Under the pieces are notes generated by a model, which saw only the letters and a list, made by a program, of their open reading frames with translations, was not told where the DNA came from and made no database searches. Of a stretch of DNA of 64,000 bases, positions 1-64,000 are shown in pieces (the stretch's first letter is position 1; every line of letters starts with the position of its first letter). Source of the stretch: Eledone cirrhosa. Taxonomy: Eukaryota. The position numbers and the translations under genes are program-made. The stretch is from contig OZ024741.1 in the NCBI GenBank assembly GCA_964016885.1, positions 377,890,001-377,954,000 of the forward strand, in the 5' to 3' direction.

Positions 1-123
1 CACTTCTGCACCAAACAGCTGAAAGCCTTCCTCACAAATTAACACCTCACACCGACACCACCATTGTAAATGTTACTACGTTTGCCAACACAAAAAAAAT
101 ATAAGCAGTAGCAATATTTTAAC

Positions 124-1503
124 TTGTCTCAGGCAGACATTCATTTCCCGCCATTACCAATGACTGCAGGTGTTAAAGCCTCCACCACCACCACCACCGC
201 GATAACCACCACCCCCACCACCACCGCGACAACAGAAACAAAAGAAGAAAAAAATAAATTAACTCGTGATGTCGAAATGAAATCAAGCAGAATGGACTCT
301 TCCGCACCAAAGACGACTGACGTCACCACCACCACCACAACTGAAACTAACATTAATATTAACACAAATAACGATAGCAACAACAACAACAATGACATTA
401 TAAAACCGACCCTCAGTTTCGCCATAGTAGCAAAACAGTTCGAATCATTCACGGTAACTCAGGAGGATTTAGAAAATGCCAAACAAATGGTAAAGAAAGA
501 TGGGTACAGGGTCAGCCTCAGCGCCCCCCCCCCACCTAATAAAATGGAGCATCGGCGCCTATACACCGTGTCGTATAGAAAAATAAATGTAAAATCGCGC
601 ATAGTGGAACGGGAATCCGAGTCCCAAATCCAAAAAGCTTTGGGACATGTGTGGGCAAGAAAAACCCACATCAGACGTGGGCAAAAGTATGGAACCGTGG
701 ATGTGTTCTTTGAAACACCAGAGGAGGCTAGAGAACACTCCATGGCCCCATTAAAAAGTGACGACTTCACACTCGTCCCAAGCTATTGTGGCCAGAGACT
801 CGTAAAGATCAGGGTGACCCACGTTCCACCGGCCATCGAAATTCCCTGGCTAATAGCGGTTGTCCTCGCCGGCATCGGAGCCAACACGAAAATAATAGAA
901 ATAGCAAAAGAAAAGCAGGAAAACTGGTCCGGATCTGGGATGGAGCTCCTGATCCAAGCGGACCAAAAAAGCATTGAGGAGATCCCAGAGGTAATAGACC
1001 TCACTGACGGCATCCACCTTACGGTAATTGTCGAGAGCAGAAGACCTAGGTGTGTCGTTTGTGGTGAAGGAACCCACCTAAGGGCTTTCTGCCCTCAGGC
1101 TAAAAGGTTGAGGCCACCTCTCCTACCCACCCCAGTGACACAACCATCAACACCACCAGTAGCAGAGATGGCAGCAACAAATGTAGCCACAACAACAGAA
1201 GCAACTATAACAGCAACAACCCCAGCAACAGTAGAAAAACCAACACCACCACCACCACCAGCAAAACCAACACCACCACCACCCAACGCTTCAGAACTAG
1301 CACCAGCGCCTACACCATCCACCACGCCACAACCAAAACTAACGCCTGTGGAGGATTTTCCACTCCCCGGCCTATCACAACTGGAGACATATTGTGACGA
1401 CGAGGAGTGGGAAACGATATCCGGAAAGAAAAAAAAGAAACCAAAAAAGAAAAAATTCTCTTCCTTCCCCCTTCAAAAACAAAATACAGAGGGAAACAAA
1501 TAA
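124..1503 (+). CDS. ORF1 (gag-like nucleic-acid-binding protein), main part
   Basis: CX2CX4HX4C knuckle CVVCGEGTHLRAFC, T/N- and P/T-rich regions, basic tract. By comparison with the copy 2 ATG (5895), the true start lies just before base 1; 124 is a TTG. Confidence 0.8.
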   Translation: MSQADIHFPPLPMTAGVKASTTTTTAITTTPTTTATTETKEEKNKLTRDVEMKSSRMDSSAPKTTDVTTTTTTETNININTNNDSNNNNNDIIKPTLSFAIVAKQFESFTVTQEDLENAKQMVKKDGYRVSLSAPPPPNKMEHRRLYTVSYRKINVKSRIVERESESQIQKALGHVWARKTHIRRGQKYGTVDVFFETPEEAREHSMAPLKSDDFTLVPSYCGQRLVKIRVTHVPPAIEIPWLIAVVLAGIGANTKIIEIAKEKQENWSGSGMELLIQADQKSIEEIPEVIDLTDGIHLTVIVESRRPRCVVCGEGTHLRAFCPQAKRLRPPLLPTPVTQPSTPPVAEMAATNVATTTEATITATTPATVEKPTPPPPPAKPTPPPPNASELAPAPTPSTTPQPKLTPVEDFPLPGLSQLETYCDDEEWETISGKKKKKPKKKKFSSFPLQKQNTEGNK

Positions 1504-1966
1504 ACTAAGAAACAAAAAAGTTAGGACAGATATGCCACCATCCACACTAGCATCACCAACCCCATCAACCCAAACACCAACACCATCACCTACACCACAA
1601 AAGTCACCAAAATGCGAAACAGAAACAAAACCACAACAAACGCAAACAAAACAAAACAACCAAAACGATACACACTACACAGCATCAAATTTGAACAACA
1701 AGCAATTATTTCACTACATCCAACACAACACCAGCATCACAGAAAAAGACTACACAACAACCCCCAAATTCACAACACCTCCACACATACAAATCACTCG
1801 CATCACACAGAAAACGTACATGACACTAAAAAAACAATTCCCCAAAGACATCGGAGACTTCCGACAAGCACTCTGCAGGAGGATTTTTAAGGACATCCTT
1901 CCTGAGGAGGCCACAAGCAGTGAAAAGGAAGAAAAAACCGTCCTTCCCCTACGAGAAGTAAGGTAA
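1440..1966 (+). CDS. C-terminal segment of ORF1, in the +1 frame
   Basis: HYTASNLNNKQLFHYIQHNTSITEK..IGDFRQALCRRIFKDIL matches KYTAINIAKKELIKYIKQHTDITEK..VGDFRGTVTKSIYTDIL of family B (13722-14020). Confidence 0.7.
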
Positions 1967-2000
1967 GTGGTCTTTCCCATCTTTTCCACTCCTTTTCAAC

Positions 2001-5000
2001 ATGACCTCACTCAGAATAGGCAGCATAAATGCGCGTGGTTTGGGGTCGTCATGGAAGCAGGGCCACCTGCTCAACGACCTCAGGTCACTAAACATAGATG
2101 TAGTGGACATCAGCGAGACAAGAATCTCCGAAGCACAGGCTTTTGCACCGATCTTCGGCGGCTACGATGTGTACGCATCTCCCAGCCGTCCAGGATCGGG
2201 GGGAGGAGTTGCTGTGCTTTTTCGGAGCGGTTTGGATCTTGCCATACGGGCCATGTTCCTGGACCCAGAAGGTAAGTTGGTGGTGCTGGACATGACCAGC
2301 GGAGACGGGCAAGCTTTCAGGTTAGTGGCCGTCTATGCCCCGACAGGAGCAGGGCGGCCTGATTTCTTCCGGCGTCTGGAGAAATTTCTTGGAACGTCCC
2401 GCTCTTTAGTGTTAGTGGGCGACTGGAACGGGATCTTAGATGCACGCTGGGATTGTGTGGGATTAGTGGATAGGGAAGGAGGGTGGAAGAGTCTCACCAA
2501 CCTGCTCAGACGTTTTGAACTGTCTGACAGGTACCGAATGGATTTCCCGAATGTACCAATGTGGACTTGGACAAATCGCATAGGGTCATCCAGATCATAT
2601 CTAGATAGAGTATGTTGTAGGGAAATAGATAGGTCTAGCATAGGCTGTCCACAATTCAAGATAGTCAGTTACACGGACCACAAATTCGTGATCTGTGTGC
2701 TTGAATTAGATAGGCTTCATAGACGAGGACCCGGCTACTGGAAGCTATACGCGTCCTTACCAGCGCGCAAGGCCTACAGAGACCGGATTAGCGAACTAGT
2801 TAAGCGGGCGTTGACAGGGGCCATCGTCAACAACAAGTGGTGGTTTGCTCTGAAACGAGCAATTAGAATAGAGTCCATTAGGTTTAGTAAGACTTTAGCA
2901 ATAGAGAAAAATAGAGCAGAGGGAGAATTAGCTAGAAAATTAGATGGGGCGCTTAGCAAAGGCATCGCGACCGACGTACTTGCGGCGAAATTGGCCCTTG
3001 ACCAATTCTTCAATGCAAAGCACGAAGGCTGCGTTGTCACAGCTAGGGTGCGTGCTCTCAGACACGAGGGAACGAAAGCCGTTCAATGGGCCCGAGTGGC
3101 GGAGGCGCGTCGTGGCAACAAAGCCACGATCCGGTCTTTGGTGGACCACAACGGGCGCATGCTACTCGATCCCGAGCAAATGTGTGAAGAGTTTCAGCGA
3201 CACTTCGCTCAACTGTTCGGGGGCAGTGGCGGGCCGGATCGAGGGATGGATTTTAGTGTCTACCTCGACGGACTGCCGCGGCTTTCGGCCACTGAGGCGG
3301 AGTGTTGCGAAAAGCCGATAACAACCGCTGAAGTACGGGATGCAATGACTAGTTGCACAAGGGGTAAATCGCCTGGTTTGGATGGTCTGCCCTATGAACT
3401 TTACTTACAAATGCCAAACTTGTTCGGAGGCCTCTTGGCGGACGTCTACTGCAACTGAGAACAGAACGGGAGAATTCCCAGCTCTGTGAGCCGAGGAGCG
3501 GTGGCGCTGCTGAGAAAGGATCCGAACAAGGGGGATAACATAGATAATTTTAGGCCCATAACTCTGCTAAACACAGAGTTCAAGATTTTGGCCAAGGTGC
3601 TAGCAAAGAGGTTGGCGCTTGTCGTTGGTGGTCTGGTGGGAGAGGCACAGATATGCGCCATTCCCGACAGATCAATCCACCACAACCTCCACCTCATGCG
3701 ATACATCGTAGAGAGGGTAGCTAGGGAACCTGGCACGGGTGGGTCTTTGATCAATTTAGATCAGTCGAAAGCCTTCGATAGGTTCGACCATCGGTACCTA
3801 GCGGCAGTCCTGAGGGCGGCTGGCTTTGGGCCCGTCTTCAGAGGCTGGATCGCTGCCATGCACAGCGACATCTGCTCTGTAGTGAGAGTGAACGGTCACC
3901 TTTCGGAACAGTTCAACATCATGCGCTCGGTCCGCCAAGGATGTCCCCTCTCGTCCCTATTGTACGTATTGACTCTCGAGCAATTACTACACAAACTGGA
4001 GACGTTGAGGGGGGTCCTGCGCGAACTAGGATGCGGAAGATCCGTGTCAGCATATGCCGACGATGTCACCGTAGTGGTGTCGAACGCCGAACACATCGAG
4101 GCGATCGGCACTACACTAAGAGAATACGAAGCGGTGACAGGAGCAATGATCAACCAGGAAAAGTCAGTGGACCTGCAGCTCGGCACCTGGAGAGGCAGGT
4201 CCATTCCGTCCAACAGCGTCGTCGGACGCTGGACGGACGGACCGGTTAAATTGCTAGGGTCTGGTTCGGTCCAGACCTCCAGACGGACAAAAACTGGGAC
4301 GAGGTGACGAGCAGGGTGGCTTCTCTCACCCAGAAATGGGCCGAGAGGAAGCTATCCCTGAAAGGTCGAGCGGAGGTGGCGAATGCGTACATCGCATCCG
4401 TCATCTACTACCGCCTGACCGTCGTACCTTGTCCTAAGCCCCGCCTGACTGCGCTGGAGCGTCTGCTCTTTCTTCTTGTGGAAGGGACGCGCTCCAATGG
4501 TCAGGCGGTCCATCTGCTGTCAACAACTACTACGTGGAGGGCTGGGCATGCCGTGGTTGATGATGCGCAGACACGCGCTCAGGCTACGACATCTCCACCT
4601 CTTCCTCGACGGTGATCAGGTGTGGTCGCCGTTTGCTAGACACGTTTTTCCCCAGCTCGTCTCCTTGACGGAGCTGCAGTCCTGGGTCAAGCGAAGACCG
4701 AAAGGGAGCGCTTGGAGACTGGAATGTCTTCAGGCGTTCACAGCCCTCGACCAATCGGGCAATGTGATCGGTGGAAACTCCACCTTGGCGTTCTATAGGG
4801 GATTAGTGGAAGGGAAGAGCGACGACGTACTTGGAGAAACTCTAGGCGTCGACGAAAATCAACTAGCCATCTTTCGGAAGGACTTTCGGGCCGGGGCCTA
4901 TGGACAACTTCCAGAAATCCCTGGCCTGGCAGTGCTACCGAGGAGCCTTGCCAGTTCGGGATAAACTCTACAGGCATGGAGGTGCCGTCAGCCGGGCATG

Positions 5001-5414
5001 TCCGAGATGCGCGCAGGGCGACGAAACCGTCCTGCACGCACTTGTCCAGTGTCCGAGCATTGCTGACTTGTGGGTTTATGTCGAACACCTGCTGTCACGT
5101 GTAGGACGGATCCAGCTATCAGCTGAGTCCATCGTGAGGATTGCCCCGCCCCCTTCCTTTAGCCTGGAAGGCAGGCAGTTTTTATCTGTCTGGTGGCCAT
5201 GGCGAAAGAGATAGTATGTTGGACACGTTTGAAAGGGCTGAAGACGAGCACTTACCTCTTCGGTGATGCCCTGATTAACTTTTTCAAATTTCATTTGAAA
5301 GGGAAAATCAGGGTAGAGAGGGAAGTGCTCTCTTCCCAGCATTTTGTTGAAAGATGGGTGAGAGAAGCAAGTTTGGCCCGAATGAATGGGCCTTCTCTGA
5401 GTATGTGTCTGTAA
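2001..5414 (+). pseudogene. ORF2 (APE endonuclease-reverse transcriptase), disrupted
   Basis: SINARG, SET, VYAP, GDWN, LDR, TDH (APE); GPGYWK; FRPITLLN, DQSKAFDR, RQGCPLS, YADD (RT); CPRC..ETVLHALVQC. Stop at 3456-3458 and frameshifts near 4258, 4470, 4868 and 5170. Confidence 0.92.
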
Positions 5415-5658
5415 ATTAAAGGTGGAAAACTGGGAGAGGGCACTTGCCCTGGTGGTCAGGGCCACTGTGGTCTTTTAATGGGCTTTCTCCACAAATGTCC
5501 CTTGGAAGTCTCCCCCCTATTGGGGAATTTTTCTTTGTTATTTTATTTCAACCTCTGTTTTTTTTACACGCAGAAATGCCCATTTGTACCGTCCTGTATT
5601 GTCATGTACTGTCCTTAATGTCTGCTTTATGTGAACCCTTGTGGTTAATAAAGAAAAC

Positions 5659-5685
5659 ATTATTATTATTATTATTATTATTATT
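5659..5685 (+). repeat. (ATT)9 tract joining copy 1 and copy 2
   Basis: Read directly from the sequence. Confidence 0.95.
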
Positions 5686-5894
5686 GGCGACCTACGTAGG
5701 AAATCGTATTATCGTGAGCTCCGCAAAGGTTTGTTATTTCCGTTTGTTTAAAAATTGCCATTTATGGAAAATTTTATTGTAAACTGTTTATAAGCACACA
5801 TACATTGTTTTCCGAAAAGGACACCCAAAAAGATTGGGGCCTTGTGCCCAAAATTTTAACTTTTATTATTATCCAAAAATTTCTTTGAAAAAAA

Positions 5895-7885
5895 ATGGCT
5901 AATTCCCCTCTGCACGAAGCAGCTGAAAGCCTTCCTCACAAAATAACACCTCACACCGACACCACCATTGTAAATGTTACTACGTTTGCCAACACAAAAA
6001 AAAATATAAGCAGTAGCAATATTTTAAATTTGTCTCAGGCAGACATTCATTTCCCGCCATTACCAATGACTGCAGGTGTTAAACCCTCCACCACCACCAC
6101 CACCGCGACAACCACCACCACCACCACCACCGCGACAACAGAAACAAAAGAAGAAAAAAATAAAGTAACTCGTGACGTCGAAATGAAATCAAGCAAAATG
6201 GACTCTTCCCCACCGAAGACGACTGACGTCAGCACCACCACAACTGAAAATAAAATTAATATTAACGCTAGCAACAACAACAACAATGACATTATAAAAC
6301 CGACCCTCAGTTTCGCCATCGTAGCAAAACAATTCGAAGCGTTCACGGTAACTCAAGAAGATTTAGAAAATGCCAAACAAATGGTAAAGAAAGATGGGTA
6401 CAGGGTCAGCCTCACCCCCCCCCCCCCCCACCTAATAAAATGGAGCATCGGCGCCTATGCACCGTGTCGTATAGAACAATAAATGTAAAATCGCGCCGAG
6501 TGGAACGTGCATGCGAGTCCCAAATCCAAAAAGCTTTGGGACATGTGTGGGCAAGAAAAACCCACATCAGACGTGGGCAAAAGTATGGAACCGTGGATGT
6601 GTTCTTTGAAACACCAGAGGAGGCTAGAGAACACTCCATGGCCCCATTAAAAAGTGACAACTTCACACTCGTCCCAAGCTATTGTGGCCAGAGACTCGTA
6701 AAGATCAGGGTGACCCACGTTCCACCGGCCATCGAAATTCCCTGGCTAATAGCGGCTGTCATCGCCGGCATCGAGGCCAACACGAAAATAATAACAATAG
6801 CAAAAGAAAAGCAGGAAAACTGGTCCGGATCTGGGATGGAGCTCCTGATCCAAGCGGACCAAAAAAGCATTGAGGAGATCCCAGAGGTAATAGACCTCAC
6901 TGACGGCAGCCACCTCACGGTAATTGTCGAGGGCAGAAGACCTAGGTGTGTCGTTTGTGGTGAAGGAACCCACCTAAGGGCTTTCTGCCCTCAGGCTAAA
7001 AGGTTGAGGCCACCTATCCTACCCACCCCAGTGACACAACCATCAACACCACCAGTAGCAGAGATGCCAGCAACAACTGTAGCAGCAACGACAGAAGCAA
7101 CTATAACAGCAACAACCCCAGCAACAGTAGCAAAACCAACACCACTACCACCACCAGCAAAACCAACACCACCACCACCCAACGCTTCAGAACTAGCACC
7201 AGCGCCTACACCATCCACCACACCACAACCAAAACTAACGGCTGTGGAGGATTTTCAACTCCCCGGCCTATCACAACTGGAGACAAATTGTGACGACGAG
7301 GAGTGGGAAACGATATCCGGAAAAAAAAAGAAACCAAAAAAGAAAAAATTCTCTTCCTTCCCCCTCCAAAAACAAAATACAGAGGGAAACAAATAAACTA
7401 AGAAACAAAAAAGTTAGGACAGATAAGCCACCATCCACACCAGCATCACCAACCCATCAACCCAAACACCAACACCATCACCATCATTATCCCCAGCACC
7501 ACCATCACCTACACCACAAAAGTCACCAAAATGCGAAACAGAAACAAACCCACAAATAACGCAAACAAAACAAAACAACCAAAACGATATACACTACACA
7601 GCATTAAATTTGAACAACAAGCAATTATTACACTACATCCAACACAACACCAGCATCACAGAAAAAAACTACACAACAACCCCAAAATTCACACCACCTC
7701 CACACATACAAATCACTCGCATCACACAGAAAACGTACATGACACTAAAACAAAAATTCCCCAAAGACATCGGAGGCTTCCGACAAGCACTCTCCAGGAG
7801 GATTTATAAGGACATCCTTCCTGAGGAGGCCACAAGCAGTGAAAAGGATGGAAAAGCCGTCCTTCCCCTACGAGAAGTAAGGTAA
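5895..7885 (+). pseudogene. ORF1 of copy 2, frameshifted
   Basis: ORFs 5895-6482, 6440-7396, 7290-7559 and 7610-7885 are successive pieces; shifts at the poly-C run (~6414-6429), the A-rich tract (~7320-7345) and ~7455. Confidence 0.85.
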
Positions 7886-7919
7886 GTGGTCTTTCCCATC
7901 TTTTCCACTCCTTTTCAAC

Positions 7920-10900
7920 ATGACCTCACTCAGAATAGGCAGCATAAATGCGCGTGGCTTGGGGTCGTCATGGAAGCAGGGCCACCTGCTCAACGACCTC
8001 AGGTCACTAAATATAGATGTAGTGGCCATCAGCGAGACCAGAATCTCCGAAGCACAGGCTTTCGCACCGATCTTCGGCGGCTACGATGTGTACGCATCTC
8101 CCAGCCGTCCGGGATCGGGGGGGAGGAGTTGCTGTGCTTTTTCGGAGCGGTTTGGATCTTGCCCTACGGGCCATGTTCCTGGACCCAGAAGGTAAGTTGG
8201 TGGTGCTGGACGTGACCAGCGGAAACGGGCAAGCTTTCAGGTTAGTGGCCGTCTATGCCCCGACAGGAGCAGGGCGGCCTGATTTCTTCCGGCGTCTGGA
8301 GAAATTTCTTGGAACGTCCCGCTCTTTAGTGTTAGTGGGCGACTGGAACGGGATCTTAGATGCACGCTGGGATTGTGTGGGATTAGTGAATAGGGAAGGA
8401 GGGTGCAAGAGTCTCACCAACCTGCTCAGACGTTTTGAACTGTCTGACAGGTACCGAATGGATTTCCCGAATGTACCAATGTGGACTTGGACAAATCGCA
8501 TAGGGTCATCCAGATCATATCTAGATAGAGTATGTTGTAGGGAAATAGATAGGTCTAGCATAGGCTGTCCACAATTCAAGATAGTCAGCTACACGGACCA
8601 CAAATTCGTGATCTGTGTGCTTGACTTAGAGAGGCTTCATAGACGAGGACCCGGCTACTGGAAGTTAAACGCGTCCTTACCAGCGCGCAAGGCCTACAGA
8701 GACCGGATTAGCGAACTAGTTAAGCGGGCGTTGACGGGGGCCATCGTCAACAACAAGTGGTGGTTTGCTCTGAAAAGAGCAATTAGAATAGAGTCCATTA
8801 GGTTTAGTAAGACTTTAGCAATAGAGAAAAATAGAGCAGAGGGAGAATTAGTTAGAAAATTAGATGAGGCGCTTTGCAAAGGCATCGCGACCGACGTAGC
8901 GAACTAGTTAAGCGGGCGTTGAAGGTGGCCATCGTCAACAACAAGTGGTGGTTTGCTCTGAAAAGAGCAATTAGTATAGAGTCCATTAGGTTTAGTAAGG
9001 CTTTAGCAATAGAGAAAAATAGAGCAGAGAGAGAATTAGTTAGAAAATTAGACGAGGCGCCTAGCAAAGGCCGACGTACTTGCGGCGAAATTGGCCCTTG
9101 ACCAATTATTCAATGCAAAGCACGAAGGCTGCGTTGTCAGAGCTAGGTTGCGTGCTCTCATACACGAGGGGACGAAAGCCGTTCAATGGGCCCGAGTGGC
9201 GGAGGCGCGTATTGGCAACAAAGCCACGATCCGGTCTTTGGTGGACCACGACGGGCGCATGCTACTCGATCCCGGGAAAATGTGTGAAGCTTTTCAGCGA
9301 CACTTCGCTCAGCTGTTCGGGGGCGGCGGTTGACCGGGTCGATGGATGGACTTTAGTGTCTACCTCGACGGACTTCCGCGGCTCTCGGCCACTGAGGCGC
9401 AGTGTTACGAAAAACAGATAACAGCCGCTGAAGTACGGGAGGCATTGACTGGCTGCACAAGGGGTAAATTGTCTGGTTTGGGATGGTCTGCCCTATGAAC
9501 TTTACGTAAAGATGCCAGACTTGTTCGGGGGCCTCTTGGCGGACGTCTACTGCAACTGGCAACAGAACGGGAGAATTTCCAGCTCTGTGAGCCGAGGAGC
9601 TGTGGCGCTGCTGAGAAAGGATCCGAACAAGGGGGATAACATAGATAGTTTTAGGCTCATAACTCTGCTAAACACAGAGTTCAAGATTTTGGCCAAGGTG
9701 CTAGCAAAGAGTTTGGCGCTTGTCGTTGGTGGTCTGGTGGGAGAGGCGCAGACATGCGCCATTCCCGACAGATCCATCCACGACAACCTCCACCTCATGC
9801 GATACATCGTAGAGATGGTAGCTAGGGAAACTAGCACGGGTTGGTCCTTGATCAATTAATATCAGTTGAAAGCTTTCGATAGGGTCGACCATCGTTACCT
9901 AGCGGCAGTACTGATGGCGGCTAACTTTGGGCCCGTCTTCAGAGGCTGGATCGCTGCCATGCACAGCGACATCTGCTCTGTGGTGAGAGTGAACGGTCAC
10001 CTTTCGGAACCGTTCAACGTCAAGCGCTCGGTCCGCCAAGGATGTCCCCTCTCGTCCCTCTTGTACGTATTGACTCTCGAGACATTACTACATAAACTGG
10101 AGACGTTGAGGGGAGCCCTGCGCGAACTAGGATGCGGAAGATCCGTGTCAGCATATGCCGACGATGTCACCTGTATTGGTGTCGAACGCCAAACACATCG
10201 AGGCGATCGGCACTACACTAAGAGAATACGAAGCGTTGAGAGGAGCAATGAACAACCTGGAAAAGTCAGTGAGCCTGCCGCTCCGCACCTGGAGAGGCAA
10301 GTCTATGCCGTCCAAAAGCGTCGTCAGGTGCTGGACGGACGGACCGATTAAATTGCTAGGGGTCTGGTTCGGTCCAGACCTCCAGACGGACAAAAACTGG
10401 GACGAGGTGACGAGCAGCGTGGCTTCTCTCACCCAGAAATGGGCCGAGAGGAAGCTATCCCTGAAAGATCGAGCGGAGGTGGCTAACTTTACATCGCGTC
10501 CGTCATCTACTACCGCCTGACCGTCGTACATTGTCCTAAGCCCCGCCTGACAGCGCTGGAGCGTTTGCTCTTTCGCTTTTTGTGGAAGAGACGCGCTCCG
10601 ATGGTCAGGCGGTCCGTCTGCTGTCAACACCCGCTACGTGGAGGGCTGGGCATGCCGTGGCTGATGATGCGCAGACACGCACTCAGGCTACGACATCTCC
10701 ACCTCTTTCTCGATGGTGATCACGTGTGGTCGCCGTTTGCTAGACACGTCTTTCCCCTGCTCGTCTCCTTGACGGAGCTGCAGTCCTGGGTCAAGCGAAG
10801 ACCGAGAGGGAGCGCTTACAGACTGGAATGTTTTCAGGCGCTCACAGCCCTCGACCAATCGGGCAATGTGATCGATGGAAGCTCCACCTTGGCATTATAT

Positions 10901-11524
10901 AGAGGATTAGTGGAGGGGAAGAGCGACGACGTACTTGGGGAAAATCTAGACGTCGACGAAAATCAACTAGCCAATCTCTTCCGAAGGACTTTCGGGCCGG
11001 GGCCTATGGACAACTTCCAGAAATCCCTGGACTGGCAGTGCTACCGGGGAGCTTTGCCAGTTCGGGATAAACTCTACAGGAATGGAGGTGCCGTCAGCCG
11101 AGCATGTCCGAGATGCGCGCAGGGCGACGAAACTGTCCTGCACGCACTCGTCCAGTGTCCGAGCATTGTTGACTTGTGGGTTTATGTCGAACACCTGCTG
11201 TCACGTGTAGGACGGATCCAGCTATCAGCTGAGACCATCGTGAGGATTGCCCCGCCCTCTTCCTTTAGCCGGGAAGGGCAGGCAGTTTTTATCTGTCTGG
11301 TGGCCATGGCGAAAGAGATAGTATGGTGGACACGTTTGAAAGGGCTGAAGACGAGCACTTACCTCTTCGGTGATGCCCTAATTAACTTTTTCTAATTTCA
11401 TTTGAAAAGTAAAATCAGGGTAGAGAGGGAAGTGCTCTCTTCCCAGCATTTTGTTGAAAGATGGGTGAGAGAAGCAAGTATGGCCCGAGTATGTGTCTGT
11501 ATGGCTCTGAGTATGTGTCTGTAA
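7920..11524 (+). pseudogene. ORF2 of copy 2, disrupted, with an internal ~188-bp duplication
   Basis: Same APE/RT/Zn motifs as copy 1; multiple stops and frameshifts. Confidence 0.9.
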
Positions 11525-11768
11525 ATTAAAGGTGGAAAACTGGGAGAGGGCACTTGCCCTGGTGGTCAGGGTCACTGTGGTCTTTTAATGGGCTTTCTCC
11601 ACAAATCTCCCTCGGAAGTCTCCCCCCTATTTGCGAAACTTTCTTTGTTATTTTATTACATCCTTTGTTTTTTTTTACACGCAGAAATGCCCATTTGTAC
11701 CGTCCTGTATTGTCTTGTACTGTCCATAATGTCTACTTTATGTAAACCCTTGTTGTTAATAAAGAAAA

Positions 11769-11769
<1 letters not shown>

Positions 11770-11802
<33 letters not shown>
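11770..11802 (+). repeat. (ATT)11 tract joining copy 2 and the family B element
   Basis: Read directly from the sequence. Confidence 0.95.
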
Positions 11803-12014
11803 GGTTGGTGAAGCCACGCTTCTTATCACCTCCAGTCTTTTTCAACGTTTTACCTCTTTTTCAACCGTTCTAAACCTTTTATTCAAGTTTTAAATTTGAT
11901 AAAAGTTTAGAAGTGACCCACCTAATACAGAGGTTCACTAGTAAATAATACGGCTCCCCTTTACTGGGTGTCGTATTCGTATTTGTGTAAAAATATTTTT
12001 TGAAAAATTTCAAC

Positions 12015-14020: not shown

Positions 14021-14052
14021 CCCTTTCTCATTTGCGCCGTTTCTCATCCAAC

Positions 14053-17000: not shown

Positions 17001-17435
17001 AGGTGCCGTCAGCCGAGCCTGTCTGAGATGCGCGCATAGCGACGAAACCGTTGTGCACGTACTCGTTCAGTGCCCGAGCATTGCTGACTTGTGGAGCTAT
17101 GTCGAAAGGTGCTGTTACGTGTGGGACTGATCCGGTTGTCGACTGAGTCCATTGTGCAGAGGGTCTCGCTGTCTTCCTTTTAGGGGGAAGGGCAGGCGGT
17201 TTTCATCTGCCTGGTAGCCATGGCGAAAGAGATTGTGTGGTGGACAAGATTAAAAGGATTAAAGACAAACACTTTCCTCTTCGGCGAAGCCCTAATTAAC
17301 TTTTTCAAGTTTCACTTGAAGAGGAAAATCAGGGTGGAGAGGCAAGTGCTGCTTTCTCGCAAGTTTGTTGTAAGGTGGGTGAATGTAGCGAGAATGGTCC
17401 GAGTGAACGGTACCACTCTGAATATACGTCTGTAG
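14053..17435 (+). pseudogene. ORF2 of the family B element
   Basis: MAVLRIDSINARG, GDWN, DQSKAFD, RQGCPLS, YADD, CLRC..ETVVHVLVQC; disrupted. Confidence 0.9.
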
Positions 17436-17726
17436 TTAGAGAGATGGAAAAATTGAGAGAGGGCGCTTTCTCTGGTAGTCAGGGTGACCGTGGTCTTTTG
17501 TGTGGTTTTCCCCTCGAGTAACCCTCGGAGGTTTCCCCCCTATTGGGACATTTTTCATTGTTTCAATTTTCATTTTTATTGTTTATATATATATATGTTT
17601 TATGTCTTTTTTTCTTTTCTTATATAAATAATAAAAATATTTACACGCACAAAACCCACATCGTACCGTCCTGTTCCGCCTGTGAAGTTTTTCTTGATGT
17701 CAGCCCTTGTGGCCAATAAAGAAATC

Positions 17727-17753
17727 ATTATTATTATTATTCTTATTATTATT
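17727..17753. repeat. imperfect (ATT)n/(AAT)n tract shared by the Tx1 (+) and R4/Dong-like (-) 3' ends
   Basis: Read directly from the sequence. Confidence 0.85.
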
Positions 17754-19052: not shown

Positions 19053-19233
19053 GTGGATTGGCACTATCGGTAGAGGGTCGGACGCCATGCTTTCAAGCAT
19101 AGTTACGTCCCTTTACGATCTGAGTTCAAATCCCGCCGAGGTTGACTTTGCCTTTCATCCTTACGGGGTCGATAAAATAAAGTACCAGTAATGCACTGGG
19201 TAATTGCTGGCCTTGTGCCTAAAGTAGAAACAA
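19053..19233 (+). mobile_element. tRNA-type SINE
   Basis: A-box-like TGGCACTATCGG (19059), B-box GAGTTCAAATCC (19122), core GCCTTTCATCCTTACGGGGTCGATAAAATAAAGTACCAG, tail GGCCTTGTGCCTAAAGTAGAAAC. Near-identical copy at 43970-44154 (-). Confidence 0.85.
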
Positions 19234-20056
19234 GTATTTATTCGTACACTCTATTTTAGGGAAGTTTAAATGTAAAAATAAATGTTTGCTTTTCATAAAT
19301 GTATCCAAAAGCAATACGTTCGGCATAATTCAAAATAATCCATATATCGTATAAGTGTGTTTAGATAAAACATGTTTATTTACCTATTAAATTCATTTAT
19401 TATTAATTTTAATTTATGTAATGACGATAGATTGATAGATAAATAGATAGATATGTAGAGAAACAGTGTAACAGAAGCCGCATAATAAATAGCATGCTTT
19501 AATCCAGTTACATTCTCTTGCATTTGCTTGGAGCTATTATCAATGTGGTCTTCAAAGTTTAGTTGAAATATCTTACTGTGAATGCTATTCTCAGCAAAAT
19601 TTAATAATCAGTATATTATAGCTTTGGGCAACATAAATTGCAATGAATCATTTCATGTTTCTAATCACCCTGGTTGTACTTGCTGATAGCTCAAAGCCTT
19701 TACTGAAATCGGAGGATATATCTCAGTTGAATAATACATAACACGGATTCTAACATGGGAAATGCATGAAACCATGACAATTACCAACATTCACATATGT
19801 ATATAAGGAAATCCGCAGACAAGTAGTAGGATTATTACGTAGTATTAATATAGACAAGGGCTGATTGTTTGCAAATAGGTGCATATACTTATGGCATCCA
19901 CCATTTTACATATACTGGTTTATCTTTCATTATTTTCCGCCTTATTAAATGAAAGGGCATGTTTAAATTTACAAAAATAATACCATGTCTACCCTGATTG
20001 GATTTGTAACTGCCCATTGATATTTCGTTTCCGATTCAGAGTAATTATTTTCTTTT

Positions 20057-20268
20057 GGTTGATTGGCAGAATCAGTAGAGCGACGGACAACATGCTATGA
20101 TGCATGGAGTTACGCCCCTTTAGATTCTGATTTCAAATCTCACCGAGTTTAGCCTTGTCTTTCATCCATACGGTGTCTGTAAAATAAAGTTTCATTGAAG
20201 CTTTGGGGGTCGATATAATCTATTTTCTCATCCGACTAAATTAGCTGGCCTCTAGTTGAAATCATTAT
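20057..20268 (+). mobile_element. older copy of the same SINE group
   Basis: TTGGCAGAATC..TTCAAATCTCACCGAG..TTTCATCC..AAAATAAAGT..GCTGGCC..GAAATCATTATT. Confidence 0.7.
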
Positions 20269-24555: not shown

Positions 24556-27368
24556 GTAGACCTGGCAAGAGATGCTGGTTACGAACATATTACTAGAAGC
24601 TGAAAATATCGTTTCCGTCACGTAAAGATTACAAGGACCGGGTCACTAATTTAGTTAATTAAAAGTTGACGGGGACATGGGTCGTCAACAACATGTGGAT
24701 AAGATTATTATCGATAAGAGATTATTATTGATAAAAGTTAGTGATGACCTAGCGTTAGAGAAAGGTAGAAAGGAGGGGAGAAGGTATCTAAATTAGACGA
24801 GGTTACTTGTATTGGCATTGCCAGGGCGATAATGATAGTAAAACAACTCTTCAATGCGAATTCAGAAGATTGCATTGTCAGAATTAAGGTACGTGCACGG
24901 CAAAATGAGGACAAAAAGGTGTTCGTTGGGTGCACGTGGCAGCGGCGCAACGCGGTAACAAAACAAAATTTCTGTCGTTGACAGACCAAAACGAACCCGG
25001 TTTCCCGGCCGATGTTTGAAGCCTTCGTCAGTACTTTGCACAGCTATTCGGACGTAGCGAGAGCCGAAGATGGTGGAGTATTTTAGTTCCTACATCGATT
25101 GCCAACTGCGCTATTCGCCAGTCGATGCTTAACGCTGCGAATATCCGATAAGTTCAGCTGAGTCTCGGGATGGCCTAGTCGGCTTCACGATGCGGGACTC
25201 ACCCGTTTTTGATGTACTGACCTACCAGCATTACGTAAATATGCCATATTTGTTCTCTGATCTCGAAGTGCTCTAATGCAAATGGCAGCAAAACGGAGCT
25301 ATTCCCAGGTCTGTGACGCTGCTAAATACATGTTTTTTGGCGAACAGGTTGGCACTAGTCGATGATGTTGTAGGGTGGGCGCAAATATGTGCAATCCCGA
25401 CCATGCTCTGTCACGTCAATACTTCCCTCATGCGATACATTGAAAATAGGATAAACCGTAAACTTGGATTCTGTGGGACATTTTTGATGAATTGAAAGCT
25501 TTCGAGAGGGTCGACCTTCGATATCTGAAATCTGTCTATAATGTAGCAGTCTTCGTTCCCGTCTTGAGAGGCTGGATCTCTGTAATGCATAGCGACGTAT
25601 GCTAGGTGGGCAAAGTTAATGACCAGCTTTCAAAATAGTTTCAGATCTCACGATATATCCGTCAATGGTGTCTCCATTTCATCCTCGTGTATTTATTGTC
25701 CCTGGTGCCTTTACTGCGGAAGCTGGAGCTGTTGCATGGATTCTAGCTTCAACCAGGACATGGAAAGGGTGCCTCGGCATATGCAGACGACAACAACATA
25801 ATAGTGTGAAACACCTCGGTGAACGAGGTGGTCGGCATCTACTTGTAGGAATATGACAGGTTGACGGGAGTAAATCTAAACTCGGAAAAGTCGGTAGGCT
25901 TGCAGCTCGGCACCGTTAGAAGCAAGTCTTTGCATTTCAACTGAGTCGTCGGAGGTTTGACGGATGGACAGGTAAAGATAATCGAGTATTGTTTCGGATC
26001 GGATCTCGATGTCGATAACAATTCGGACGTGGTAACGTTCAGGGTAACCACTATGAGACACAAATAGGCTGAGAGGAAGCTGTCCCTAAAAGGTCGGTTG
26101 GAGGAAAAGTTGTATATCGCATCAGTCATCTATTACCGCCTGACCGGTGTGCCTTACCCCCGTTCACACCTCAGCAAATTATTGTGGAGGTGAGATGTTA
26201 CGTTAGTGATGTACTCCATTTGCTGCCAGCACGTTCTACGAAGAGGCCTTGGCATCGAGTCGATGATGATGTGCAAACATGCTCTGAGGCTGTGGCACCC
26301 CAAGATACTCTGCTTCAAATGTTAACAGGTGTGGTTAACTTTTGCGAGACAAGCCTTTCCGCAGCTCGTATCATTGACTGGGCTGCAGGCATGAGTCGAA
26401 AAGAACCCGAGTCTGGGCGCTTGACATCTGGAATGTTGCCAGGCACTCACTGCCCTCTACCAGGCGGGAAATGTGGTCAAGTTCTCTAGAGGATTAGTTG
26501 TGGACATGTTCCACGACGCACTTCAAGAAGCTTTGGTCGTCTACGAAGTCGAACTTACTTGTCTGTTTCGGGGGATTTTCGAGCAGGTAACTATGGATAA
26601 CAATCAGAATTCCCTCGCTTTTGCAGCCTACCGTTGCCACTGCCGGTTCGCGATAAACTCTACACACATGGACATGTTGTCAGACGGATCTACCAGAGAT
26701 GCACGCAGAACAACAAAACCGTTCTGCATGTATTAGTCTAGTGTCCGTGCATTAATGTCTTGTGAATTTCAGTCGAACAGCTTTTGTCGCATTTAGGAAG
26801 GTTTACGCTATTGACCGTGTCTACAGTGAAGACCACCCAGTCTCCTTCTATTTGACCGGGAAGGGCAGACAATTTTACCCTGTCTGGTAGTTGTAAAGTA
26901 AGATGACATGTGGTGGACCATGTTGAAAGGACTGAAGACAGACACTTTTCACTTCGCCGATCCTTCATAAACTCTTTCAAGTTTCATTTGGAAAGAGAGG
27001 TTTGGGTGGAGAGAGAAGTGCTGCTCCCCAGTTTATTTGCTAATTGGTAGATGCATGTTGCAAGATTGGTCACAGTAAATGGGCCTAGATTATGCATACA
27101 ACTGTAGGCTGGCGGATTTAAGGAGGAGTGAGATTCCCTTTCCGGGTGCTCTAGAAGCTTCGGGTGGTTCAGAACAGGTGTGGAACCTGACTAACCCTGG
27201 GTGGTTATCCCCACTATTGAGGAACTTCTGATATTTTTTTAATTTTCTTGTTTATTTCTTTCTTTTTGTTTTCATATATTTTTACTCGATTTGTGTTTAA
27301 AGCCCCCACTATCGCCGTCTATTGTGTTATCTCCTATATGTCGGCCCTTGTGGCCGATAAATGAAACC
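24556..27368 (+). mobile_element. old 5'-truncated Tx1-like element (third subfamily)
   Basis: Colinear with ORF2 of families A and B (AQICAIP, KAFERVD, GCATATGCAGACGAC = AYADD, AERKLSLKGR) and with their 3' UTR; ends GGCCCTTGTGGCCGATAAATGAAACC. Confidence 0.85.
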
Positions 27369-27635: not shown

Positions 27636-27795
27636 TGATTGGCAGAATCGTTAGAGTGTCAGAGTAAATGGTTTATTGGACTTAGTTACCTTTCATCCTT
27701 CAGAGTTTGATAAAATATAGAGCAAGTCAAGTACTGGTTTCGTTATGATCTATTTTATATTTCCTCAAAAATTGGAGATCGTGTGCATTAATTAT
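27636..27795 (+). mobile_element. decayed, internally deleted SINE copy
   Basis: TTGGCAGAATCGTTAGAG..CCTTTCATCCTT..GATAAAAT. Confidence 0.55.
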
Positions 27796-31953: not shown

Positions 31954-32748
31954 TGAATTGGCAAGCGTTTTACATGTAGTAGGGACGTAAGTCAGATTGG
32001 GCTAACATATAGTATGATTTCTGTAGAAAAACAATTGTGGCAAGCATTTAAAGAGGGAACCCCGTAGCGAGAATCAGTACATAGAAACATATGCTTACAA
32101 TTGCAGCTTATAAATGTTTAAAATTTAGAAATAGAAGTAATTTCACAAACATTGTTAGAGTTCTTGAAATGATATGGAGCCCCAATAGGTATTTGGTTGT
32201 AGTATGTTTGAGATAGAAATAATTAGATGACCTTTTCTGTGAGCTATTTAGAATTTACATATATTCTCGAATATATATTAAATTGGATTCGATTCTGACT
32301 CACAATTAAACATTATAATCGTCTTACCTACAGTCATTCAGCGCTCAAACAAGAATGACTGTAGGTAAGATAAGTTGTTGACGATTATAATGTTTAATTG
32401 TGAGTCAGAATCGAATCAAATATAATATATATTCGAGAATATATGTTAATTTTTTAAATTCTAAATAGCACACTGAAAAGGTCATCTAATTAGTTCTATC
32501 TCAAACATACTACAACCAAATACCTATTGGGGCTCCATATCATTTCAGAAACTCTAACAATGTTTGTGAAATTACTTCTACTTTAAATTCTAAACATTTA
32601 TAAGTTGAATGTTTGCGTATATGTTTCTATGTACTGATTCTCGCTTCAGAGTTCCCTCTTTAAACGCTTCCCACAATTGTTCCTCCCAATCTGACTTGGG
32701 TCCCTACTACATGTAAGACGCTTGCCAATTCAGAGCTCAAACAAGAAT
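31954..32748. repeat. ~380-bp inverted duplication (fold-back)
   Basis: 31954-32339 is the reverse complement of 32353-32732. Confidence 0.9.
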
Positions 32749-41337: not shown

Positions 41338-42221
41338 GTATATTTGAAAAAAAGGAAAATGATGACTTCACTTGTAGTGTTAACACATTTTTTGAATTAA
41401 TGTTATAATATTATAATATTATGAGTTGATAGATCCAGTAAGTTCTTTGTTAACTTCGGTGGGAAGAATTTTAGAGATTCCTGGTTTGAGAACTTTCTCG
41501 CACTCGTCTGTCTGTGGCGATTGTCAAACTGAGATCATATTGTGTTGAACTATGTGACTATATATAAAAGAGATTTGAATGTGTCTGGTGTGTAGCGTGT
41601 GGTGTTAATGAGTGTTGATGATGAAGAAGTCCGGAGGATTTAAAGTATAGCTACACACACACACGTACACACATACACGTACACACACACATACATATGC
41701 ACTAAGAAAATGGTGAGGTTACAAGAAAAGGGTGTTAGATAAGGTCGTCCTAAACATACTCTCCTGCTGGTTTTATTTAATTAACTGACCTTTGATGAGT
41801 ATATAATGGCATATCTGAATCAACTCTACCAAATCCATAAAGAATGTCTTCTACACATTTCTATATCAAATATGAATTGAGGTGCTTGTCTGGGTTTTAA
41901 TGAGGTGTAAGATACATGTCTTTTGATAAGAATGGGGTGACAGGAAAAAGAGAAAAGAAGGATAGTTTGGGAACATTTGACGAAGGTGTGTTGTTGATAT
42001 TGGTTTAGGAGAGGAAGTGTCTGTGTGTGGGGGGACATTCTGGTTCAGATATTCACTTCCCTATATGTAAATATATCTACAGTCCATATATACTACATAG
42101 AAACACATATTTACATACATATATATACAAACACACATTTTTCAAATATACAAACCCATATATATATATATATATACACATACAAACCCATATATATATA
42201 TATATATACACATACAAACCC

Positions 42222-42399: not shown

Positions 42400-43485
42400 A
42401 AGTATGTCCATAGAATCATTTGATAATATTTATACACCATCTCCTCTCCCAATCAGCATACTCAACTACACAAGCAACAATTAAATCAGGCTATAAGATT
42501 AAAAGGCTCCTATGAAGAAATAATAGATAAATAAACGACAGCCATCTATTCGCGATCAACAGATACATAATATTTACCCAGAATTTTAATAGCACGTGGA
42601 AATCGATTAAATACATCGTCAACCATACACAATTAGGTATAAAATTAAAGTTAGAATAAAAAATGTATATAAACATACCAAGATTACGTTTCTACCCCAT
42701 GGGTTTCATTCGCTTTTGGAAATATCGGATCAAGGATAAATTCACGAGCTTCCAAATCATTAGGAAACAATCTCAATTGGACGAAGATTTTTCTTAAATG
42801 ATCCCCGCAAGAAACGAATTAAAAGTGGCTAAGAACGTGGCAGTGGTCAAGTCAGAAAGAATGTGATTGGTGCCTTACGGCGAGTGGGTTGTTTGCTAGA
42901 AGGTGCAGCCTAATATTACCTAAATTGCATCTGAACCTTATGGGAGATTATCAAATATAAAGATTTACATATACACAAACTATACAAAGTCATATATATA
43001 TATATGTTCTCTTCAGCGATCGAATGTTTGAAAGTACGGGTATCATCAACTATTTTTGTTTTTCAATATCAACACTCATTAACACCACACGCCACACCCA
43101 GGCACATCCAAATCTCTCTTATATATATATATAGTCACACATTTCAACACAACCTGATCTCAGTTTGACAATCGCTACAGGCAGACGAGTGACAGAAAGT
43201 TCTCCAACCAAAGTTAACCAGGAATCTCTAAAATTCTTCCCGCCGAAGATAACTTACTGGATCTACCAACTCATAATTGTTTCTACATTTGGCACAAGGC
43301 CAGCAATTAGCCAGTGCATTTGTGGTACTTTATTTTATCTACCCCGTAATGATGAAATGCAAAGTTAACCTCGGCGGGATTTGAACTTATCTACCAACTC
43401 ATAATATTATAATATTGTAACATTAAATCAAAAAATGTGTTAAAACTACAAGTGAGGTCATTCCTTTCCTTTTTTACAAATATAT
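41338..43485. repeat. ~280-bp inverted repeat pair (41338-41620 / 43068-43485)
   Basis: Arms are reverse complements; the right arm is interrupted by a SINE fragment. Confidence 0.85.
43278..43388 (-). mobile_element. 5'-truncated SINE with 17-bp TSD
   Basis: ATCTACCAACTCATAAT at 43261-43277 and 43389-43405. Confidence 0.85.
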
Positions 43486-43501
43486 ATAAATATATATATA
43501 T

Positions 43502-43927: not shown

Positions 43928-43964
<37 letters not shown>

Positions 43965-43969
43965 ATAAT

Positions 43970-44154
43970 TGTTTCTACTTTAGGCACAAGGCCAGCAATT
44001 ATCCAGTGCATTACTGGTACTTTATTTGATCGACCCTGTAAGGATGAAAGGCAAAGTAAACCTCGGCGGGATTTGAACTCAGACCGTAAAGGGACGTAAC
44101 TATGCTGGAAAGCATGGCGTCCGATTCTCTACCGATGTTGCCAATCCACTGCCC
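43970..44154 (-). mobile_element. full-length SINE with ~18-bp TSD
   Basis: Reverse complement of the 19053 copy; TATATATATAGTAATAAT at 43952-43969 and 44155-44172. Confidence 0.87.
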
Positions 44155-44251: not shown

Positions 44252-45707
<1,456 letters not shown>

Positions 45708-60525: not shown

Positions 60526-63500
60526 GGCGACCTACGTAGTAAATCGTATCATCGTGAGCTCCGCAAAGGTTTGTTATTTTCAGTTATTTAAAATTGCCAT
60601 TTATGGAAAATTTTTATTGTTAACTATATATAAGTGCACATACATTGATTTCTGAAAAGGACACACACAAATATTGGGGCCTTGAGCCCCAAATTTAAAC
60701 TTTTTTATAATTATCAAACAAAAAATGTTTTTCTTTGAAAAATAATGGATGACTCAGATTCACTCCTTCCTCACAATCCAACATCTCACACCGACACCAC
60801 CATTATAAATATTGCTACGTTTGCCAACACTGGAATTGTAAGCAGTAGCAATATTTTAAATTTGTCTCAGACAGACGTTCATTTCCCACCATTACCAATG
60901 ATTGCAGGTGTTAAAGTAGCCACCACAACCACCACCGCGACAACCACCACCCCCACCACCAACACAGAGACAACAGAAACAAAAGAAAAAATAAATTAAC
61001 TCGTGATATCGAAATCAATTCAACCAAAATGAACTCTTCCACACCGAACACGACTGACGCCACACTACCACAACTGAAGCTAAAATTAGCAATAGCAAAA
61101 ATAACGATAATAACAACAGCAACAATGAAATTAAGAAAACTACCCTGAGTTTTGCCAGAGTAGCAAAAACGTGCGAAGCGATCCAGGTAACTCAGGAAGA
61201 ATTAGACGAAGCCAAAGGAATGGTAAAGAAAGATGGGTACAGGGGCAGCCCCCCCCCCACACACACCTAATAAAATGGGCAACGTCGCCTATGCACCGTG
61301 TCTTATCGGAGAATAAACATAAAATCGCGCCGATTGGAACGGGCATCCGAGTCCCAAATCCAAAAAGCTTTGGGATATGTGCGGGCAAACAAAACCCCAC
61401 ATCAGAGGTGGTCAGAAGTATGGAACCGTGGACGTTTTCTTTGAAACACCACAGGAGGCCAGAGAACACTCCATGGCCCCATTAAGAAGTGACGACTTCA
61501 CACTTATCCCAATCTATTGTGGCCAGAGACGTGTGAAGATCAGGGTGACCCAAGTTCCACCGGCCATCGAAATTCCCTGGCTAATGGCTGCCGACCTCGC
61601 TCGCCGGCATCGAGGCCAACACCAAAATAATAGAAATAACAAAAGAAAAGCAGAAGAACTGGTCCGGATCTGGGATGGAACTCCTGATCAAAGCGGCCCA
61701 TAAAAGCATTGAGGGGATCCCAGAGGTAATAGACCTCACAATCGGCAGCCACCTAGCCGTAATCATCGAGGGCAGAAGACCTAGGTGTGTCGTTTGTGGT
61801 GAAGGAACACAGATAAGGGGTTTCTGCCCTCAGGCTAAAAGGTTGAGGCCACCTCTCTTACCCACCCCAATGACTCAACAATCAACACCACCAGCAGCAG
61901 AAATAGCAGCAACAACTGTAGCAGCAACAAGAGAAGCAGCTGTAACAGCAACAACCCCAGCAACAGTAGCAAAGCCAACTCCACCACCACCCAACGCCCC
62001 AAAACAAGCACCAGCGCCTACACCATCCACAACGCCACAACCAAAACCAACGCCAGTGGAGGATTTTCCACTCACCGGCTTATCGCAACTGGAGACAAAT
62101 TTTGACGACGAGGAGTCAGAAAAAAAGAAAAAGAAAGATACCAAAAAAGAAAAAATTCTCTTCCTTCCCCCTCAAAAAACAAAATACAGAGGGAAATAAA
62201 TAAATTATCGAGCAAGAAAGTTAAGACGGATATGCCACCATCCACACCAGCATCACCAACCCCATCACCACAAACCGCAACACCATCACCATCATTAACC
62301 CCAACACCACCATCACCAACACCGCAAAAGTCACCAAAAAGCGTAACAGAAACAAACCCACAAAAAACGCAAACAAAACAAAACAACCAAAACGATACAC
62401 ACTACACTGCATTAACTTTGAACTACAACCAATTATTAAACTACATGCAACACAACACCAGCATCACAGAAAAAGACTACACAACAACCCAAATACAAAT
62501 CACTCGCATCACACAGAAAACGTACAGGACACTAAAACAAAATGCCCCAAATACATCGGAGACTTCCGACAAACACTCTCCAGTAGGATTTAGCAGTGAA
62601 AAGGATGGACAAACCATCCTTCCTCTACGAGAAGTAAGGTAAGTGGTCTTTCCCATCTTTTCCACTCCATTTCAACACAACCTCACTCAGAATAGGCAGC
62701 ATAAATACGCGTGGCTTGGGGTCGTCATGGAAGCAGGGTCACCTGCTCAACGACCTCAGGTCACTAAACATAGATGTAGTGGCGATCAGTGAGCCAGAAT
62801 CTCCGAAGCACGGGTCTTCGCACCGACCTTCGGCGGCTACGATGTGTACGCATCTGCCAGCCGTCCGGGATCGGGGGGAGGAGTTGCTGTGCTCTTTCGG
62901 AAAGGTTTGGAACTCGCCATACGGGCCATCTTCCTGGACCCAGAAGGTAAGTTGGTGGTGCTAGAAGTGCCAGCGGAGACGGGCAAGCTTTCAGACTAGT
63001 GGCCGTCTATGACCCGAGAGGAGCAGGGCAGCCTGATTTCTTCCGGCGTCTGGAGACCTTTCTTGGAACGTCCCGCTCTTTAGTGTTAGTGGGCGACTGG
63101 AACGGGATCTTAGATGCACGCTGGAACTGTGTGGGATTAGCGGATAGGGGCGGAGGGTGCAAGAGCCTCACCAACCTGCTCAGGCGTTTTGAACTGTCTG
63201 ACAGGTACCGATTTGATTTCCCGAATGTGCCAATGTGGATAGGACATATTGCATAGGGTCATCCAGATCATATCTAGATAAAGTATTTTGTAGAGAAATA
63301 GGTGTCTAGCATAGGCTGTACACAATTCAAGATAGTCAGCTACACGGACCAAAAATTCGTGATCTGTGTACTTGGCTAAGATAGGCTTCATAGACGATGA
63401 TCCGGCTACTGGAAGCTAAACACGTCCTTACCAGCGCGCAAGGCCTACAGAGACCGGATTAGCGAACTAGTTAAGATGGCGTAGACGGGATCCATCGTCA

Positions 63501-64000
63501 ACAACAAGTGGTGGTTTGCTCTGAAAAGAGCAATTAGAATAGAGTCCATTAGGTTTAGTGAGGCTTTAGCAATAGAGAAAAATAGAGCAGAAGGAGAATT
63601 AGTTAGAAATTTTGACGAGGCGCTTAGCAAAGGCATCGCGACCGACGTGCTTGCGGCGAAATTAGCCATTGACCAATTATTCAATGCAAAGCACGAATGC
63701 TGCGTTGTCAGAGCTAGGGTGCGTGCTCTCAGACACGAGGGGACGAAAGCCATTCAATGGGCCAGAGTGGCGGAGGCGCATCGTGGCACCAAAACCAGGA
63801 TCCGGTCTTTGGTGGACCACGACGGGCGCATGCTACTCGATCCCGGGCAAATGTGTGAAGCTTTTCAGCGACACTTCGCTCAATTGTTCGGGGGCAGCGG
63901 CGGGCCGGATCGAGGGTTGGACTTTAGTGTCTACCTCGACGGACTGCCGAGGCTCTCGGCCACTGAGGTGGAGTGTTGCGAAAAGCCGATAACAGCCGCT
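60526..64000 (+). mobile_element. Tx1-like family A copy 4 (runs off the window)
   Basis: Same 5' end GGCGACCTACGTAG; disrupted ORF1 at 60745-62642; ORF2 from ~62677 with ATG mutated to ACA. Confidence 0.92.

Follow-up and report, generated by a model that had tools for sequence, protein, structure and literature searches.

In crocodilians, the available text of PMC4494074 assigns SINEU a Tx1 partner, Tx1-Mar, through a common target preference. SINEU as presented there combines snRNA heads with a poly(A) tail, and no shared 3' end is described in that text, whereas the SINE family analyzed here has a tRNA head, lacks poly(A), and shares a 3' hairpin with Tx1-type LINEs. In the stringent pairs eel SINE/UnaL2 and ZfL2, the accessible parts of PMC3747384 and PMC4176376 describe a shared 3' stem-loop with a conserved loop and an exchangeable stem, as found here. 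The partners in stringent pairs are, however, mostly CR1, RTE, or L2 elements, and L1-clade tails occur in only three SINEs among 58 tail-sharing pairs (PMC3747384, same accessible text). A tail-sharing pair would thus be added to the L1/Tx1 group, where such pairs are scarce.

A second line of work concerns the RNA itself. The accessible sections on human L1 "snap-velcro" (PMC4014453) and on tailless retropseudogenes (PMC5322556) establish RNA-target pairing and describe, much as proposed here, a target that depends on the 3' part of the RNA pairing with nicked DNA as well as on the endonuclease. In those systems, pairing involves poly(A) or internal stretches of the RNA, whereas here it apparently involves the source gene's own TSD, so that the preference would be inherited along the SINE lineage. 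For the first-base difference between Bov-B and Sauria SINEs, the RNA 3' repeat has likewise been proposed to influence nicking or priming; in the text available (PMC13295347) this is a comparison across families and a hypothesis without general consensus, and the in vivo role of the RNA 3' end in site choice for SINE/LINE tails is called unsettled. Here, by contrast, a single base differs between lineages of one family whose tails are the same. The accessible text of PMC4494074 presents Kibi and Koshi as Tx1 families with an APE endonuclease that insert in short tandem repeats; the LINEs described below, likened to them by description alone, target (ATT)n and (TATC)n.

Abundant tRNA SINEs have been reported in octopus (tRNA-Core/tRNA-Deu, PMC8967140; OR1/OR2), likened to the present family by description and not by sequence, and the text covered of PMC8967140 gives no partner or target for them. 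The available part of PMC13282606 lists L1-Tx1 among the recently active elements of Octopus vulgaris. A literature search, with subscription papers, Repbase, Dfam, and most supplements outside its scope, found no octopus SINE/Tx1 pair and no lineage-heritable target switch; a motif search of the literature gave unrelated primers only, among the matches listed.

The window analyzed is a 64,000-nucleotide stretch of the Eledone cirrhosa genome (contig OZ024741.1), and the focal SINE copy has the following features:

19053..19232, + strand: SINE copy, near full length (about 6 nt absent at the 5' end), with a tRNA-like head, a central body, and a 3' stem-loop tail
19209..19232, + strand: SINE tail, a 3-bp stem around a CTTGT loop, then 7 nt, GAAA, and 2 nt
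19233..19239, + strand: 3' flank AGTATTT of the copy, the variant target of its sublineage

An earlier note on this DNA had drawn the element to 19240 and written the SINE 3' end as running into ATTAT. Both points need correction: the SINE ends at 19232, its flank is AGTATTT, and no TSD was found for the copy at 19053..19232. In contigs of four runs, no joint across the insertion that would represent its empty allele was seen among the matches listed.

The family is about 185 bp long, non-coding, and high-copy, shows 5' truncations and TSDs, and carries neither poly(A) nor an internal terminator. A 33-nt tail pattern had at least 35,920 exact matches in the 3.0-Gb genome, and none for the reversed control. 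Eight 100-kb blocks (800 kb), placed irrespective of content, contained 93 tails, which extrapolates to roughly 350,000 copies; the copies from these blocks are those called random below. Four tailed copies lie in the window. The A/B-box-like motifs of the head were assigned by eye and are taken as such from general tRNA knowledge; ARAGORN and Rfam searches of the SINE returned no match, and a motif search in one of the two MetaSINE supplement files left the SINE body unmatched. The family is probably already in repeat libraries. A pattern meant to avoid SINE bodies (8,396 matches) was discarded, the 30 loci read being only SINE variants or truncated SINEs.

The window also contains several Tx1-type LINEs:

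1..5658, + strand: Tx1-type LINE, family A, its 5' part beyond the window; reading frames disrupted, 3' end at (ATT)n, and 96.6% identity to a young copy
5686..11769, + strand: full-length family-A Tx1-type LINE, flanked on both sides by (ATT)n and carrying an internal duplication of some 190 bp
5838..5861, + strand: stem-loop like the SINE tail in the 5' UTR of the preceding family-A element; exact 11-nt match to the SINE stem-loop
11803..17726, + strand: Tx1-type LINE, family C, about 80% identical to A; 3' hairpin at 17703-17726, then (ATT)n; the element with which the earlier note compared the SINE
25479..27368, + strand: family-D Tx1-type LINE, truncated at the 5' end; has the same CTTGT loop, closed by a 6-bp stem
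60526..64000, + strand: 5' part of a further family-A Tx1-type LINE, with (ATT)n upstream

The LINEs at 1-17726 encode APE endonuclease, RT, and zf-RVT domains (Pfam) in the two-ORF architecture of the L1/Tx1 group. The solved endonucleases closest to theirs are L1-derived, and the closest named relative of the window reverse transcriptase is from Argonauta hians (70%). We take these elements to be Tx1 from their architecture, their microsatellite and target specificity, and general knowledge of the clade; no Tx1 name or clade label occurred among homolog names, cluster names, or the ESM Atlas. A Tx1 3'-end pattern gave 16,285 matches genome-wide, across several families, with A, C, D, and F adjoining (ATT)n, and E and G adjoining TATCT or TATAT. 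In an endonuclease tree of 11 of 22 copies, from which most near-identical family-A loci were left out, the ATT families split from six other copies at 100/100, and four of these six were traced to TATCT ends. Family A has at least 30 ends that round to 100% identity over 791 nt. Twenty young A copies were retrieved, all adjoining (ATT)n and three with an unbroken ORF2 (1133-1139 aa). A TSD of at least 7 nt at the offset seen for the SINE was present at 16 of 48 Tx1 ends, mostly inside microsatellites and with approximate boundaries; one case, of 19 bp, is clean.

Our analysis uncovered a strong family-wide target preference of the SINE. ATTAT directly follows the tail in 78 of the 93 random copies, against a background of 0.28% for ATTAT, which places the ATT bias proposed in the earlier note far above chance. 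Among TSDs of random copies starting exactly at the element end, 27/31 begin with ATTAT. The upstream-copy consensus is Y|A(T/G)TATT over 154 TSDs of at least 10 nt (all loci in hand, of mixed ascertainment, tandem copies dropped), with C or T at position -1 in 147/154 and A at +1 in 148/154. TSD length has a median of 15 (n=138, range 9-34). Two ATT units at most were found at 47 of 58 random copies, whereas young Tx1-A copies lie in long (ATT)n runs.

The insertions on which the earlier note had relied are these:

43970..44154, - strand: full-length SINE copy; 18-bp TSD starting ATTAT (43952-43969, 44155-44172)
43278..43388, - strand: 5'-truncated SINE copy; 17-bp TSD starting ATTAT (43261-43277, 43389-43405)
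41418..41434, + strand: empty site matching the 43278 copy, located in the second arm of an inverted repeat, with one mismatch
45320..45397, + strand: 5'-truncated SINE copy; 10-bp TSD starting ATTAT (45310-45319, 45398-45407)
44414..44423, - strand: empty site matching the 45320 copy, located in the second arm of an inverted repeat

All three TSDs (17 bp at 43261/43389, 18 bp at 43952/44155, 10 bp at 45310/45398) start with ATTAT as had been reported, and both empty sites in opposite inverted-repeat arms, at 41418 and 44414, were recovered. Long inverted-repeat elements, MITE-like and some of them nested, occupy 31954-32732, 34804-35852, 43493-43848, and 44247-45599 of the window.

The focal copy belongs to a sublineage of 49 copies carrying 12C and 43A (positions counted from 19053), which differ from it by a mean of 0.6 positions. 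As our initial search query contained the AG flank (and gave 30/30 AG loci, which were not used as evidence), the lineage was re-picked genome-wide on head positions only, with a 43-nt head pattern containing just these two substitutions; all 49 copies were retrieved. Their 3' flanks read AGTAT in 43, AGTAA in two, ATTAT in three, and AATAT in one. AGTA(T/A) is therefore present at 45/49 lineage copies versus 0/93 random copies (Fisher p 9e-33), and where the TSD is resolved (33 copies), its upstream copy likewise begins AG in 31. Family-wide, an AGTAT flank was found in 667 matches, less than 2% of the 35,920. This lineage has switched its target from ATTAT to AGTAT. Segmental duplication or gene conversion does not account for it, as the 49 flanks differ and are on many chromosomes. 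Three AG insertions (L026, L233, L304) are in SINE heads whose empty site is known to contain AGTAT, so that AGTAT was present in the target before insertion.

Closely related lineages behave differently with the same tail. The 64T+148A branch of 12G+43A, equally young, is at ATTAT in 5/5 copies, as is the 12G+43C haplotype without private changes, just as young (5/5, flank-selected loci omitted). The parental pattern, 12G+43A, matched 349 times; its first 30 matches are a mixture of targets (13 AG and 15 ATTAT). Lineage and target are associated beyond the second base as well: the +7 base is T in 17/30 copies of the AG lineage (background 0.34, p 0.009) and A in 29/43 random ATTATT copies (background 0.45, p 0.002). 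The family is in effect a natural one-base control, with the same tail and the same age but a different flank and a different target, and it lends itself to a direct two-construct assay.

The 12C substitution also removes an AGTAT site from the family's own head (19060-19070 in the window), a site that is hit in parental heads, so that in the AG lineage the head itself has ceased to be a target. This loss could be chance or self-avoidance.

What would move such a lineage to a new site? We favor, with moderate confidence, a joint model in which the ORF2 protein of ATT-targeting Tx1-type LINEs would copy the tRNA-headed SINE by binding its CTTGT-loop hairpin, and the landing site would be set both by the endonuclease nick and by pairing of the nicked DNA with the first 5-7 flank nt carried on the SINE RNA. 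Pol III transcripts can extend past a gene to a run of T. Having no poly(A) and no internal terminator, the SINE would be read by Pol III past its end into the flank of the source gene, up to a T run. A rare AGTAT insertion that turned source gene would then breed further AGTAT insertions. The model also predicts lineages with other flanks, such as GTTAT and AATAT. The locus L005/L281, a full-length copy with zero differences followed by AGTA and six T, is a candidate source gene of the AG lineage, and the T bias at +7 agrees with a source flank that closes with a run of T. At two young loci with discordant TSDs (L020 and L292, the former chosen by its 3' flank), the lineage base is in the downstream copy and not in the upstream one, which may hint at bases copied from RNA at the junction.

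That pairing with the RNA caused the switch seems to us likely, with a good margin of confidence. Counting against pairing are the AG-lineage copies at ATTAT (3/49) and AATAT (1/49), and the small number of direct traces of RNA-copied junction bases, namely L020 and L292. Against the joint model count the sharing of the tail over 24-30 nt only, its best match being the TATC-targeting family E, and the location of young Tx1-A copies in long (ATT)n where SINE copies mostly are not. On balance, and somewhat cautiously, we lean toward a site preference that is heritable and written outside the element, in the TSD of the source gene, such that an RNA extension of 5-7 nt would reprogram landing with a Tx1-type ORF2p and a single flank base would have rerouted the lineage from ATTAT to AGTAT. 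The pair would then combine a SINE/Tx1 partnership of the rare tail-sharing type with an insertion system that is natural and guided in part by RNA, and its short insertion-steering extension would be relevant to retrotransposon-based gene insertion tools. A caution follows for the standard practice of assigning partner LINEs by shared target motifs, which may ride on the SINE RNA and not on the endonuclease alone.

One could instead propose that the Tx1 endonuclease alone sets the target and that the AGTAT lineage was moved by a variant endonuclease, from a distinct or mutant Tx1 copy, that chanced to be co-expressed with one SINE source gene. Endonuclease clades do track targets, endonuclease swaps alter the targets of stringent elements (accessible text of PMC4014453), and the pyrimidine at -1 in 147/154 TSDs is inexplicable by RNA pairing; we assign it to the endonuclease for the very reason that it does not match the RNA. 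This is unlikely, however, as SINE lineages of equal age that share this tail insert at ATTAT, the parental pattern is itself mixed, and the +7 base is lineage-specific too. Moreover, just 25 Tx1 ends adjoin AGTA against 16,285 in all, in a genome-wide search for AG-cutting LINEs that covered one Tx1 tail form, and all 25 are from ATT families.

To return to the Tx1-type partner of the joint model, the last 30 nt of the SINE were compared with one end from each of 12 LINE families. The parallel drawn in the earlier note between the SINE end (19209-19232) and the Tx1 end at 17703-17726 holds, with 16/24 identical positions and a shared CTTGT loop. Each has a 3-bp stem, whose middle pair is swapped between them, followed by 7 nt and by GAAA plus 2 nt; in SINE and Tx1 alike, the TSD begins two nucleotides past GAAA. 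Ungapped identity to the SINE's last 30 nt was 17/30 for Tx1 family A, 19/30 for C, 22/30 for E, and 18/30 for F; family D, with a one-base offset, reached 12/30. Shuffling of gapped scores gave p values of 0.0002-0.005 for the five Tx1 ends and of 0.08-0.77 for the seven CR1, Dong, and RTE ends, whose ungapped identities were 2/30 (CR1), 8/30 and 9/30 (two Dong), and 6-13/30 (four RTE). The loop is constant in families A, C, D, E, and F while the stem pairs change and covary, as expected for loop-specific recognition; the loop of family G is altered. Recognition of this kind has been demonstrated for L2 elements (available text of PMC4176376). A tail-like match beside a Dong-type family (17/24) proved to be internal and not a terminus.

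The tail similarity, the same junction register, TSDs of about 15 bp, and young LINE copies with unbroken ORF2 point to a Tx1-type LINE as very probably the partner of the SINE, judging from sequence comparison. A 3' terminal sequence and structure are shared, though the shared part is short (24-30 nt) and common to at least five families; since these have two targets between them, the hairpin does not narrow the candidate to one family. SINE and Tx1 also have the same insertion signature, in register and ATTAT start, the SINE being less tied to long repeats. Their activities overlap, which agrees with the age concordance that the earlier note had suggested checking: copies of the SINE sublineage differ by 0.6 positions each, and the top Tx1-A ends, selected as best matches, are 0.16% apart. 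Nick register and youth, rather than tail sequence, make it probable that the partner lies within the ATT group of Tx1. The original claim of an ATT-targeting Tx1 as tail partner thus survives as to the type of tail, but not as to the closest tail, which belongs to the TATC-targeting family E (22/30 versus 19/30 for the family ending at 17726). The claim that ATT polarity fits Tx1 and not Dong is similarly half right: Dong does have the opposite polarity, (AAT)n, but the (ATT)n terminus is also that of a CR1, and a partner cannot be named from polarity alone.

The superior match of family E raises the possibility that a TATC-group Tx1 family (E or relatives) is the driver and that the ATT target of the SINE comes wholly from RNA pairing, which appears capable of steering the target; the last six bases of the SINE are also present in some family-E copies. 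We regard this as improbable, as family-E TSDs start TAT and not A-x-TAT, sampled E copies are 88-97% alike, the youngest TATC family has a changed loop, and none of the 93 random SINE copies has a TSD starting TATCT. About as improbable is a non-Tx1 partner, most plausibly an unsampled family or the CR1 whose tail is (ATT)n, in which case the likeness to Tx1 would be left over from an earlier partnership: SINEs are most commonly partnered by CR1 and RTE (accessible text of PMC3747384), 13 CR1 families are recently active in Octopus vulgaris (available part of PMC13282606), and that CR1 has the right polarity, but the one CR1 end sampled here shows no CR1 tail in the SINE (2/30), a TSD of at least 7 bp was found in 0/13 of its copies with a mapped 5' end (a weak result, boundaries coming from one reference), and neither an RTE-like tail nor the T stretch near -10 given as an RTE signature in the available text of PMC13295347 (about 10 nt upstream of the TSD) was found, the latter in 142 SINE sites. 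Nor did scans of 864 kb and 1.97 Mb reveal a recurring non-Tx1 terminus resembling the SINE tail, so that a better-matching LINE 3' end, the refuting condition set in the earlier note, did not emerge in the 1.97 Mb sampled; this survey of LINE ends covers less than 0.1% of the genome, and L2, I/Nimbus, R2, and Hero ends are absent from the sample. With a Tx1-type LINE retained as partner, a candidate driver is at hand for one of the largest repeat classes in octopus genomes.

Several further features of the LINEs were recorded. Family G, TATC-targeting and very young (copies up to 99.6% alike), has its altered hairpin loop in the C2, C3, and C5 blocks and is found near 40440 on the minus strand. 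Stem-loops like the SINE tail, with the stem polarity of the SINE, are present in the Tx1-A 5' UTR at 5838-5861 and 60676-60700, and reach up to 19/24 identity in young copies; from their sequence, they may represent either an old SINE end that the LINE captured or an additional site for ORF2p binding. The Tx1 ends have AATAAA about 12 nt before the junction (17713-17719 in the window), a motif that the SINE does not contain. Given this position, cleavage and polyadenylation would fall in the flanking microsatellite, and the LINE RNA would gain several repeat units. Positions 1-17750 of the window hold three Tx1-type elements head to tail with (ATT)n between them, an array that terminates in the (AAT)n tail of a Dong/R4-type element on the reverse strand; Dong tails house numerous copies of Tx1 and the SINE. 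At L038, L056, and L343, SINE or Tx1 ends are arrayed in tandem with one common TSD, which suggests repeated template jumps at one nick.

Older SINE subfamilies (20058-20190 and 27637-27737 in the window, and the flanks of L346 and L349) have an extra C-rich segment, about 30 nt long, ahead of the tail, and their ends are nearer to the Tx1-C terminus than those of the young family, which looks like an internal deletion of the older form. More than half of the SINE words that were sampled occur in sequencing runs of ten other organisms, which makes the family common to several species, in which lineage target switches could be sought.
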